NCBI RefSeq assembly: GCF_017348835.2
Contig: NZ_CP072315.1
Reading direction: 5' to 3' (one strand)
Length of the DNA stretch: 64,000 nt
Source: Escherichia coli
Lineage (GTDB): Bacteria > Pseudomonadota > Gammaproteobacteria > Enterobacterales > Enterobacteriaceae
Shown here: one piece after another, positions 1 through 2,657 of the stretch
Numbering within the stretch: the stretch's first letter is position 1
Layout: each line of letters begins with the position of its first letter
The notes under the pieces: generated by a model
What the model was told of the DNA's origin: nothing
Seen by the model: only the letters and a program-made list of their open reading frames with translations
Databases searched by the model: none
Made by a program: the position numbers and the translations under genes

Positions 1-611
1 GGCGCGATCTTGCCGGTTGCTGCGCTGTACCAAATGCGAGACAAAGTAAGCACTACATTCCGCTCGTCGCCTGCCCAATCCGGTTGTGAGTTCCATAGTT
101 TCAAGGTGTCGGCCAGTGCTTTGAATAGATCGCTTTCCGGGACTGAGTTGAAGAAATCTTCCGCGGCCGAACCTGCCAAGGCAAGGCTGTGTTGCCTTGC
201 TTTAGTTAGCAGAATAGCCAGATCAACATCGGTTGTCGCGGGCTCGAAGATGCCCGCAAGAATGTCCTTGCGCTGCCACTCCCCGAATTGCAGTTCCCGT
301 CTGGCTGGATAACGCCAAGGAACAACATCGCCGTACACGACGATGGTAACTTCCAAGGCACGGAGAGCTTCACTTTGGCCGGGAGAAGCGGAAACTTCCA
401 GGAAATCTACGAACAGAGCCTGCCGCACAGTCTCATCGAGCTGTGCAGTCACAGTAACCAGCAAATCAATATCACTGCATGGCTTCAGGCCACCGTCGAG
501 TGCAGAGCCGTACAAATGCACGGCCAGCAACGTCGATCCCAGATGATGCTCGATGACGTTGAGTGCCTGTGATAGCTGTACCGAAATCTCGGCGGGCACT
601 GCGTTGCTCAT
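1..611 (-). CDS. aadA16: AadA-family aminoglycoside (3'')(9) adenylyltransferase (aadA16-like); 3' end lies beyond the window start
   Basis: Minus-strand ATG at 611-609 gives MSNAVPAEISVQLS...HLYGSALDGGLKPCSDIDLLVTV...DERNVVLTLSRIWYSAATGKIAP, colinear with AadA enzymes. Last cassette of the array; allele name inferred from array context only. Confidence 0.8.
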   Translation of the reverse strand, partial: MSNAVPAEISVQLSQALNVIEHHLGSTLLAVHLYGSALDGGLKPCSDIDLLVTVTAQLDETVRQALFVDFLEVSASPGQSEALRALEVTIVVYGDVVPWRYPARRELQFGEWQRKDILAGIFEPATTDVDLAILLTKARQHSLALAGSAAEDFFNSVPESDLFKALADTLKLWNSQPDWAGDERNVVLTLSRIWYSAATGKIA

Positions 612-722
612 GATGTCTAACTCCCAATTTGTGTAGGGCTTATTATGCACGCTTAAAAATAATAAAAGCAGACTTGACCTGATAGTTTGGCTGTGAGCAA
701 TTATGTGCTTAGTGCATCTAAC
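601..722. repeat. 122-bp direct repeat, copy 1 (cassette 5' leader plus first four codons ATG AGC AAC GCA)
   Basis: Identical string gcgttgctcatgatgtctaactccc...agtgcatctaac read at 601-722 and 2536-2657. Confidence 0.9.
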
Positions 723-791
723 GCCGCTAAGCAGCGGCACATTTTGCGTTTTGAGCGCAGCGAAGCAAAATGTGTCCGATGGCTTGGATGG
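723..791 (-). other. attC recombination site of the dfrA27 cassette (approximate)
   Basis: Imperfect inverted repeats (cgctaagcagcggc; gcgttttgagcgcagcgaagcaaaatgtg) between the dfrA27 stop and the next cassette boundary. Confidence 0.45.
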
Positions 792-1265
792 TTAACCCCT
801 TTGCCAGATTTGATAGCGATAATTTATATTTGAATGAAATTCCTGCTCGAACACCACATTGAACTCTTTGGGGATTTCCGGAAAGAAAACATTGCCCTCT
901 GGCTCGGAATCTATTGTCGAGATATGTAGCGTGTCGGCATGGGCGATCAGACTCTTGTAGATCTCTCCACCACCAGAAACAACAACATGGTTCGTAAGAG
1001 TCTTTAGCTCCCTCATTGCTGCTTCTATAGATGGAAACACAACCACATCATCGTTAGTAGCTACCGATCCTGAGCGGCTGACAACTGCATACTTTCTATT
1101 TGGGAGAGCCCCCATTGCCTCAAATGTTTTACGGCCGACTAAGAGCCATTGATTGTAAGTTATTGCTTTAAAAAGCAGCTGCTCACCTTTAGCGTTCCAC
1201 GGGATATCCGAGCCGCAGCCAATAACCCCATTTCTTGCTTTTGCAGCCATTAGTGATATTTTCAC
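792..1265 (-). CDS. dfrA27: trimethoprim-resistant dihydrofolate reductase DfrA27-like
   Basis: Translation [62 protein letters not shown]...YQIWQRG is colinear with DfrA1-type enzymes (157 aa). GTG start at 1265 inferred by alignment to DfrA1; the supplied ORF begins further upstream at an ATG. Confidence 0.8.
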
Positions 1266-1325
1266 GATACTCCTTTGGGTTAACGCCGCCATAAACGGCG
1301 ACAGGGTGGCGCGCCTATTGCGCAT

Positions 1326-1397
1326 AAAATGGCGAAGCCATGCGCAACAGGCGCGGAATCTCTGGCGTCCGGTTTGATGGCTTTGTTATGCAAAGGA
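1326..1397 (-). other. attC site of the arr-3 cassette (approximate)
   Basis: Short non-coding spacer between the arr-3 stop and dfrA27 with imperfect dyad symmetry; boundaries not resolved. Confidence 0.35.
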
Positions 1398-1850
1398 CTA
1401 GTCTTCAATGACGTGTAAACCACGGCGCTTTAAGTCCTCCAACGAATCCAACATTCCCCTTATTAATTCAACAGGATGCCCCTCCCAGTCTTCAACAACG
1501 CCAACAATTCTCAAGGGTTCGCAGGTTCTATAGGACTGTGTTGGATTACCGGGAAATCTTTTGTTCGTAAGATTCGGATCGTCTTCGAACGGTCCTGTTG
1601 GCTCAACTATGTATATGTAGCCGCGACCCTCGAGGCCAGACAGTGACATAGCAAGTTCAGCTCCCCAAACTGCTGGCTCCATCAAGGCTGAAAAGTAGAT
1701 GTGCTTAAGAATACGACCGTCCTCGAAATGAGAGATGAACCCTGTGGTTAGCAAGTCACCAATCGCCAAATTGGCTTTGGTTCCATGATAGAACGGTCCT
1801 TGCACCTGCTTGTAATTATCATGAGAGATGGGAATCCAATCTTTTACCAT
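1398..1850 (-). CDS. arr-3: rifampin ADP-ribosyltransferase Arr-3
   Basis: 150-aa translation MVKDWIPISHDNYKQVQGPFYHGTKANLAIGDLLTTGFISHFEDGRILKHIYFSA... matches the Arr family at Arr-3 length. Confidence 0.9.
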   Translation of the reverse strand: MVKDWIPISHDNYKQVQGPFYHGTKANLAIGDLLTTGFISHFEDGRILKHIYFSALMEPAVWGAELAMSLSGLEGRGYIYIVEPTGPFEDDPNLTNKRFPGNPTQSYRTCEPLRIVGVVEDWEGHPVELIRGMLDSLEDLKRRGLHVIED

Positions 1851-1880
1851 TTTAAGACCCTTAATTGTTGGGATTTGGCT

Positions 1881-1952
1881 GCATAACGTTTGACATGAGG
1901 GGCGGCCAAGGGCGCCAGCCCTTGGACGTCCCCCTCGATGGAAGGGTTAGGC
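1881..1952 (-). other. attC site of the aac(6')-Ib-cr cassette
   Basis: Reverse complement reads GCCTAACCCTTCCATCGAGGGGGACGTCCAAGGGCTGGCGCCCTTGGCCGCCCCTCATGTCAAACGTTATGC, the characteristic aacA4 attC ending in a GTTRRRY core. Confidence 0.6.
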
Positions 1953-2546
1953 ATCACTGCGTGTTCGCTCGAATGCCTGGCGTGTTTGAACCATGTACAC
2001 GGCTGGACCATATGGGGTGGTTACGGTACCTTGCCTCTCAAACCCCGCTTTCTCGTAGCATCGGATCGCTCGCAAGTTGCTCGGCGACGGGTCCGTTTGG
2101 ATCTTGGTGACCTCGGGATCATTGAACAGCAACTCAACCAGAGCTCGAACCAGCTTGGTTCCCAAGCCTTTGCCCAGTTGTGATGCATTCGCCAGTAACT
2201 GGTCTATTCCGCGTACTCCTGGATCGGTTTCTTCTTCCCACCGTCCGTCCCCGCTTCCAAGAGCAACGTACGACTGGGCATACCCAATCGGCTCTCCATT
2301 CAGCATTGCAATGTATGGAGTGACGGACTCTTGCGCTAAAACGCTTGGCAAGTACTGTTCCTGTACGTCAGCAAGTGTCGGGCGTGCTTCTTCTCCGCCC
2401 CACCACTCGACGATATGAGATCGATTTAGCCACTCATAGAGCATCGCAAGGTCATGCTCAGTCATGAGGCGCAGTGTGACGGAATCGTTGCTGTTGGTCA
2501 CGATGCTGTACTTTGTGATGCCTAACTTTGTTTTTGCGTTGCTCAT
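1947..2546 (-). CDS. aac(6')-Ib-cr: aminoglycoside 6'-N-acetyltransferase AAC(6')-Ib-cr (fluoroquinolone-acetylating variant)
   Basis: Translation from ATG at 2546: [32 protein letters not shown]... Contains GDGRWEEE (Arg for Trp102) and TTPYGPAVY (Tyr for Asp179), the two -cr substitutions as remembered. Confidence 0.9.
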
Positions 2547-2657
2547 GATGTCTAACTCCCAATTTGTGTAGGGCTTATTATGCACGCTTAAAAATAATAA
2601 AAGCAGACTTGACCTGATAGTTTGGCTGTGAGCAATTATGTGCTTAGTGCATCTAAC
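2536..2657. repeat. 122-bp direct repeat, copy 2 (5' leader and start of the aac(6')-Ib-cr cassette)
   Basis: Identical to 601-722. Confidence 0.9.

Follow-up and report, generated by a model that had tools for sequence, protein, structure and literature searches.

The window analysed here, a 64-kb stretch of Escherichia coli DNA, carries at its left end a class 1 integron whose cassette array, read from the minus strand, comprises aac(6′)-Ib-cr, arr-3, dfrA27 and aadA16. The integron was recognized by an intI1 gene (2793–3806, plus strand; 337 aa, with R32 and H39), an attI1 site ending in G|TT, a Pc promoter located inside intI1 and the cassette array itself. As read from the sequence, attI1 was placed at 2658–2720 on the minus strand, with an approximate left limit, and ends in ...GCCCTAAAACAAA followed by the G at 2657, while Pc was found at 2880–2908 on the same strand as TGGACA-17 nt-TAAGCT, which we take to be the weak PcW variant. 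The first cassette holds aac(6′)-Ib-cr (1947–2546, 199 codons) and ends at G 1887; arr-3 (coding sequence 1398–1850) occupies the cassette 1886–1284 and dfrA27 (coding sequence 792–1265) the cassette 1283–722, all three on the minus strand. The fourth gene, aadA16 (1–611, minus strand), runs off the left end of the window, and only its first 611 nt or 203 codons (MSNAVPAEISVQLSQ...) lie inside, with the 3′ part and the attC outside; between Pc and the aadA16 ATG downstream of it lie approximately 2.3 kb, including three attC sites. The 3′-conserved segment (3′-CS) lies beyond the window edge and is present in the near-identical record L003.

Gene identities were assigned from the near-identical record NZ_CP023943.1, because it is annotated with these four genes, at 100% identity, and differs from window positions 1–3806 by a single base. 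The 611 nt of aadA16 within the window are identical to the gene of that record, with an AMRFinder call of aadA16 at 100%. The aac(6′)-Ib-cr gene, annotated as aac(6′)-Ib-cr5 in NZ_CP023943.1, encodes both cr residues, R (GDGRWEEE) and Y (TTPYGPAV), whereas the non-cr allele of L004 has W (GDGWWEEE) and D (TTPDGPAV) at these positions.

A repeat search of window positions 1–6000 found a single direct-repeat family with two copies, at 600–722 and 2535–2657, each of 123 nt, 100% identical and with a spacing of 1935, and string comparison agreed on the same end points. A 48-nt core taken from this repeat has exactly two matches in the 64-kb window and none in 100 shuffles. The repeat had been described in a sequence-only reading of this DNA as 122 bp long and lying within 601–2657; the repeat itself is real, but its length is 123 nt and the left coordinate 601 is one base short of the actual end at 600, and the figure of 122 bp results when counting starts at the TT that follows the crossover G. 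In the cassette direction (minus strand), its 5′ end is the G of the core site GTTAGAT, and this boundary G closes attI1 at 2657 in the copy ahead of aac(6′)-Ib-cr (copy A) and the dfrA27 attC at 722 in the copy ahead of aadA16 (copy B). The 3′ end of the repeat is ATG AGC AAC GCA (2546–2535 and 611–600), and the two genes thus share a leader and their first four codons, as that reading had stated.

Part by part, the repeat consists of the boundary G, 101 nt of the 5′ UTR of the qacE/qacEΔ1 cassette (qacE101) and the 21 nt TTAGACATCATGAGCAACGCA, which are the ordinary start of aadA6/aadA11-type cassettes. In copy A (2535–2657, minus strand), qacE101 spans 2656–2556 and is followed by the aadA-type 21 nt at 2555–2535, with the ATG at 2546–2544; in copy B (600–722, minus strand), qacE101 spans 721–621 and is followed by the native aadA cassette start at 620–600, with the ATG at 611–609. 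In an alignment counted over each part, repeat positions 1–102 (the G plus 101 nt) were identical to the qacEΔ1 leaders of L001 and L003, which form the start of the 3′-CS, and the same positions matched the qacEΔ1 leaders of thousands of plasmids at 100%. A third copy, of 102 nt, is located at qacEΔ1 just outside the window. The 102-nt part stops at GGGAG, 7 nt ahead of the qacE ATG, where the window reads GGGAG|TTAGACATCATG versus GGGAG|ATATATCATGAAAGGC in qacEΔ1, the TTAGAC being the start of the aadA6/aadA11 cassettes, and in each repeat copy the GGGAG stands 9 nt 5′ of an ATG. This is the structure of a qacE101-fused cassette, with identity over 101 nt from the boundary G|TTAGAT, a stop at GGGAG and fusion at that point to the first base of another cassette. 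The qacE/qacEΔ1 5′ UTR origin of 101 of the 122 nt was the part of the shared leader that the sequence-only reading had missed.

Fusions of this kind have been described before. A review (PMC8876359, section 2.3) reports a 101-bp segment of the qacE 5′ UTR, designated qacE101, fused to aac(6′)-Ib-cr, aacA29a, aacA29b and aadA16, and states that the fused genes are transcribed from the qacE promoter in the segment, with Partridge 2009 and Raherison 2017 among its citations; in addition, “(qacE101-aadA16)” is annotated in In843 in Table 3 of PMC5437533. The feature in the window is therefore already known, and compared with the fused cassettes of the review, which involve the same 101-nt segment and the same two genes, nothing substantive differs. 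The extra 21 nt of aadA origin, together with the 9 nt of attI1 found in the aac(6′)-Ib-cr copy, are unmentioned in PMC8876359 and PMC5437533.

Judged from its sequence, it is AAC(6′)-Ib-cr that is chimeric: in its gene, the leader and four codons of aadA precede 9 nt of attI1, and the true aacA4 cassette starts only after these, at TTAGGC. Following the repeat, the gene reads AAAACAAAG and then TTAGGCATCACAAAG; the former (2526–2534, minus strand) matches the final 9 nt of attI1 exactly and joins the borrowed MSNA codons to the aacA4 start TTAGGC at 2525. The gene was recognized as a chimera because its similarity to other aacA4 cassettes does not extend upstream of TTAGGC or, at most, of the 9 attI1-like bases preceding TTAGGC. 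The aacA4 gene was aligned in four different 5′ contexts. In L012, it follows the blaVIM-1 attC, with homology from G|TTAGGC, and in the second context it is preceded by the whole of attI1; in the other two, only 8 nt of attI1 stand between the gene and the leader and initial codons of blaTEM (Tn1331 type, L011), or 9 nt of attI1 between the gene and the qacE101-aadA leader. This indicates that the aacA4 cassette proper starts at TTAGGC and that its start codon is supplied by whatever sequence lies upstream. The Tn1331-type aac(6′)-Ib (L011, a ColEST258 plasmid) resembles the gene in the window in that its start codon and promoter-proximal sequence come from another gene and in the position of the graft, where 8 nt of attI1 (AAACAAAG) separate the foreign sequence from TTAGGC, whereas its donor was blaTEM and not qacE101 plus aadA. 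In Tn1331, the duplicated TEM segment is also a direct repeat. For the 199-aa AAC(6′)-Ib-cr, the start codon is reportedly provided by the qacE101 fragment.

In L004 and L005, the same leader is followed by aadA16 fused in frame to aac(6′)-Ib and to aac(6′)-IIa, and the fused cassettes ant(3″)-Ii/aac(6′)-IId and, in AMRFinder, ant(3″)-Ij/aac(6′)-Ib resemble them. In contrast to such fused bifunctional cassettes, aadA16 and aac(6′)-Ib-cr form two distinct cassettes in the window, and a copy of the leader precedes each. Fusion cassettes of the aadA16::aacA4 type are still present in plasmids of Aeromonas and Vibrio. The fusion junction of L004 reads ATGATGTCT|AAAACAAAG|TTAGGC, and in silico removal of L004 positions 3704–4495 (792 nt; aadA16 codons 5–268) generated the region of the window from attI1 to the 5′ part of aac(6′)-Ib-cr, the product being exact except for four allelic point differences in the aac body. 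This match raises the possibility, which we advance only tentatively and with some doubt, that the long-leader aacA4 genes, including every aac(6′)-Ib-cr starting MSNAKTK, may descend from an aadA16::aacA4 fusion cassette by one in-frame deletion. If this is true, it would have been through a fused cassette that a gene lacking a start codon gained a promoter, a ribosome-binding site and an ATG. The reverse order, in which the fusion was formed later from an array of aadA16 and long-leader aacA4, is equally parsimonious.

The two copies of the repeat bracket the aac(6′)-Ib-cr, arr-3 and dfrA27 genes, as had been noticed from the sequence, and the prediction that a crossover between them would leave aadA16 beside attI1 agreed with an exact junction present in natural plasmids. 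The predicted deletion product, represented by 283 nt (the repeat flanked by 80 nt of attI1 and 80 nt of aadA16), was matched at 100% in a single aligned piece in 7 PLSDB plasmids and likewise in 5 E. coli plasmids that are related and approximately 114 kb in size, the comparison with these 5 covering the junction. Among the 7 PLSDB matches, the simple product attI1-leader-aadA16-qacEΔ1-sul1 was found only in LC567051.1 (L007), a sul1-ISCR1 complex integron, and the other six records carry cassettes in which aadA16 is fused in frame to aac(6′)-Ib or aac(6′)-IIa. One could regard the repeats mainly as a recombination substrate, at which a RecA crossover would work as a deletion switch, with loss of aac(6′)-Ib-cr, arr-3 and dfrA27 and placement of aadA16 next to Pc. 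A perfect identity of 123 nt suffices for RecA-dependent recombination, and the exact predicted junction exists in LC567051.1 and in the 5 related E. coli plasmids, both of which fit such a switch. However, because the repeat starts exactly at the G|TT crossover point, IntI1 excision between attI1 and the dfrA27 attC would yield base for base the same product, and the natural junctions therefore do not show homologous recombination. Moreover, the simple product was found in one plasmid lineage only, out of about 440 aadA16 plasmids, and the other six attI1-leader-aadA16 records are fusion cassettes of a different history. We thus consider it improbable that a deletion switch is what the repeats mainly represent. 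The 123-nt direct repeats, together with the 102-nt copy at qacEΔ1, could nevertheless permit RecA-dependent deletions with products identical to those of IntI1 excision, and sequence alone does not allow a loss of cassettes between the repeats to be assigned to homologous recombination. Tandem amplification with the repeats as its limits, the signature of unequal crossover, was not seen. A 1000-bp duplication of dfrA27 and the 5′ end of aadA16 in NZ_MH061195.1 (L008) was inspected as a candidate and set aside, its end points not being the repeats.

To the sequence-only reading, it was the aadA gene that had acquired a chimeric 5′ end. The comparison with related aadA cassettes reverses this assignment, with MSNA being native to AadA16 and the four codons borrowed by aac(6′)-Ib-cr. 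The leaderless cassettes of aadA6 (L002) and aadA11 (L001) start with GTTAGACATCATGAGTAACGCAGTACCC and encode MSNAVPAEIS; in L001, the aadA11 cassette begins directly after the dfrB1 attC and reads GTTAGACATCATGAGTAACGCAGTACCCGCC, with the N-terminus MSNAVPAEISVQLS. These cassettes therefore share with aadA16 the cassette start GTTAGACATCATGAG(T/C)AACGCAGT and the N-terminus, and differ from it in that they lack qacE101 and directly follow the preceding attC or other 5′ sequence. Counted from the cassette start, the first 620 nt of aadA16 agreed with aadA11 at 565 positions (91%) and with aadA6 at 529 (85%), and the similarity of aadA16 to both continued unbroken over the end of the repeat, with 20/21 nt matching before it and 55/60 after it. 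In the borrowed codons, AGC agrees with aadA16, while aadA6 and aadA11 have AGT. Because aadA6 and aadA11 have the same start without the leader and the similarity runs across the repeat boundary, MSNA is taken to be the native N-terminus of AadA16.

These data bear directly on the opposite proposal, that recombination or gene conversion inside this array transferred the leader and four codons to aadA16 from the adjacent aac(6′)-Ib-cr cassette and that AadA16 would thus be the chimera. Such a transfer would agree with the 100% identity of the two copies and with the presence of aac(6′)-Ib-cr in the array of most aadA16 records, but aadA6 and aadA11 possess the 21-nt start and MSNAVPAEIS with no aacA4 nearby, and the aadA16–aadA11 similarity shows no break at the repeat end. 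In addition, leader-bearing aadA16 occurs in arrays without aac(6′)-Ib-cr (arr-3-aadA16 in L006; aadA16 alone in L007), and on aacA4 the MSNA graft lies upstream of an attI1 remnant, at the very place where aacA4 takes other foreign N-termini. We therefore regard a transfer to aadA16 as very unlikely.

Comparison with reference aadA16 cassettes, which the sequence-only reading had itself suggested, was made in PLSDB, where 440 plasmids have aadA16 at an identity of at least 99%; leader and aadA16 were contiguous in 439 of about 440, which indicates an inherited feature of the cassette and not a local rearrangement. Leader-bearing aadA16 was observed after the dfrA27 attC (the window and L003), after the arr-3 attC (L006) and after attI1 (L004, L005 and L007), and from these several array contexts it follows that leader and aadA16 move as one cassette. 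Most probably, therefore, the repeat is a shared 5′ expression module that was inherited by both cassettes and did not arise by a rearrangement in this plasmid. Both cassettes are very common, and the repeat is a documented, fixed and ordinary feature of them. An assembly or duplication artefact of this sequence can practically be dismissed, since the same two copies with the same spacing are present in the independent record NZ_CP023943.1, the leader-aadA16 junction is found in hundreds of independent complete plasmids and the attI1-leader-aac(6′)-Ib-cr junction in many.

As for how the shared module might have formed, its pieces are the boundary G, the first 101 nt of the qacE cassette ending in the qacE Shine-Dalgarno sequence GGGAG, and 21 nt of an aadA16-type cassette, the last made up of a 9-nt spacer, the ATG and three codons. 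In aadA16, qacE101 is fused exactly to G|TTAGAC, the natural start of the cassette. We infer, as the simplest route, that IntI1 acted at a secondary site within the qacE leader, which reads GGGAG|ATATAT and in which GATAT fits the consensus GWTMW; the aadA cassette could have been inserted at this site, or a qacE-aadA array could have lost its qacE body by excision. The secondary-site route predicts as its footprint the aadA16 attC joined to ATATATCATG, and the fused qacE101-aadA16 then moves as one cassette. A scan for the GGGAG|TT junction gave 0 matches in species-representative genomes and 1 in metagenomes, which was another aadA16, and an ancestral structure, be it a qacE-aadA16 array or an aadA16 attC joined to ATATATCATG, was not found. 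In aac(6′)-Ib-cr, the module with four aadA codons is grafted onto the 9 nt of attI1 and the aacA4 cassette, which has no start codon at the graft point, so that the graft provides the ATG of the 199-aa protein. For the attI1 9-mer downstream of aadA codon 4, our best explanation offers no route for its placement.

A scan for sigma-70 consensus promoters inside the leader gave no match, and a more lenient hexamer scan of the leader returned weak candidates only, among which a CATAAT −10 hexamer with GTG in front of it was the best. The assignment of a promoter to qacE101 accordingly rests on PMC8876359 and the papers cited there. With the reported promoter and the GGGAG located 9 nt before the ATG, the module would give each gene its own start of transcription and translation, and the benefit would be greatest for aadA16, the fourth cassette, approximately 2.3 kb from the weak PcW. 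The module accounts for the 199-aa AAC(6′)-Ib-cr starting with MSNA and for a possible expression of aadA16 from the fourth position behind a weak Pc. Beyond correct annotation, in which MSNA should be read as an aadA signature borne by aac(6′)-Ib-cr, it has little import, and the two repeats, together with the third copy at qacEΔ1, are a known hazard for the short-read assembly of this very common array.

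Among the N-terminal grafts onto aacA4, the last 8-9 nt of attI1 were kept before TTAGGC, the true cassette start, in all three independent cases: the graft of qacE101 with the MSNA codons in the window (2526-2534), that of the blaTEM leader in the ColEST258 plasmid L011 (about 400-408), and that of the aadA16 3′ end in the comparison plasmid L004 (4496-4504). All three breakpoints fall close together, at the L box of attI1 (GCCCTAA|AAC), and this clustering hints at a recurrent and possibly integrase-related breakpoint. The 123-nt leader of the window was also found, directly 3′ of attI1, in front of two in-frame, bifunctional fusion cassettes, namely aadA16::aac(6′)-Ib in L004 (3692-5083, 463 codons; ant(3″)-Ij/aac(6′)-Ib by AMRFinder), carried by Aeromonas and Vibrio plasmids, and aadA16::aac(6′)-IIa in the plasmid L005 (3692-5065, 457 codons), carried by Enterobacter IncHI2 plasmids.

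The window Pc promoter (2880-2908, minus strand) reads TGGACA-17 nt-TAAGCT, the weak PcW variant, and IntI1 carries R32/H39; this combination is compatible with a benefit from cassette-borne promoters.

Both leader-bearing cassettes are missing from NZ_CP129862.1, where the array at 2451-4035 consists of arr-3, dfrA27 and qacEdelta1. The qacEdelta1 leader is joined there directly to the dfrA27 attC, a junction that is the expected product of aadA16 loss, via either IntI1 or recombination between leader copies. A 1000-bp tandem duplication in the order dfrA27, aadA16 5′ 207 nt, dfrA27, aadA16 was observed in NZ_MH061195.1 (6536-9035). The 123-nt repeats are not its end points, and it may be genuine or may have arisen during assembly.

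Around the integron, an IS26 transposase gene (window 4270-4992, plus strand) was located about 460 bp past the end of intI1, and window positions 1-12000 gave a 99.9% match, in eight pieces, to NZ_CP090540.1, a 242-kb plasmid of Salmonella enterica, with ISVsa3 lying within the matched region. Judged from this IS26 and the fragmented, ISVsa3-containing match, the integron lies in a mosaic multiresistance region.
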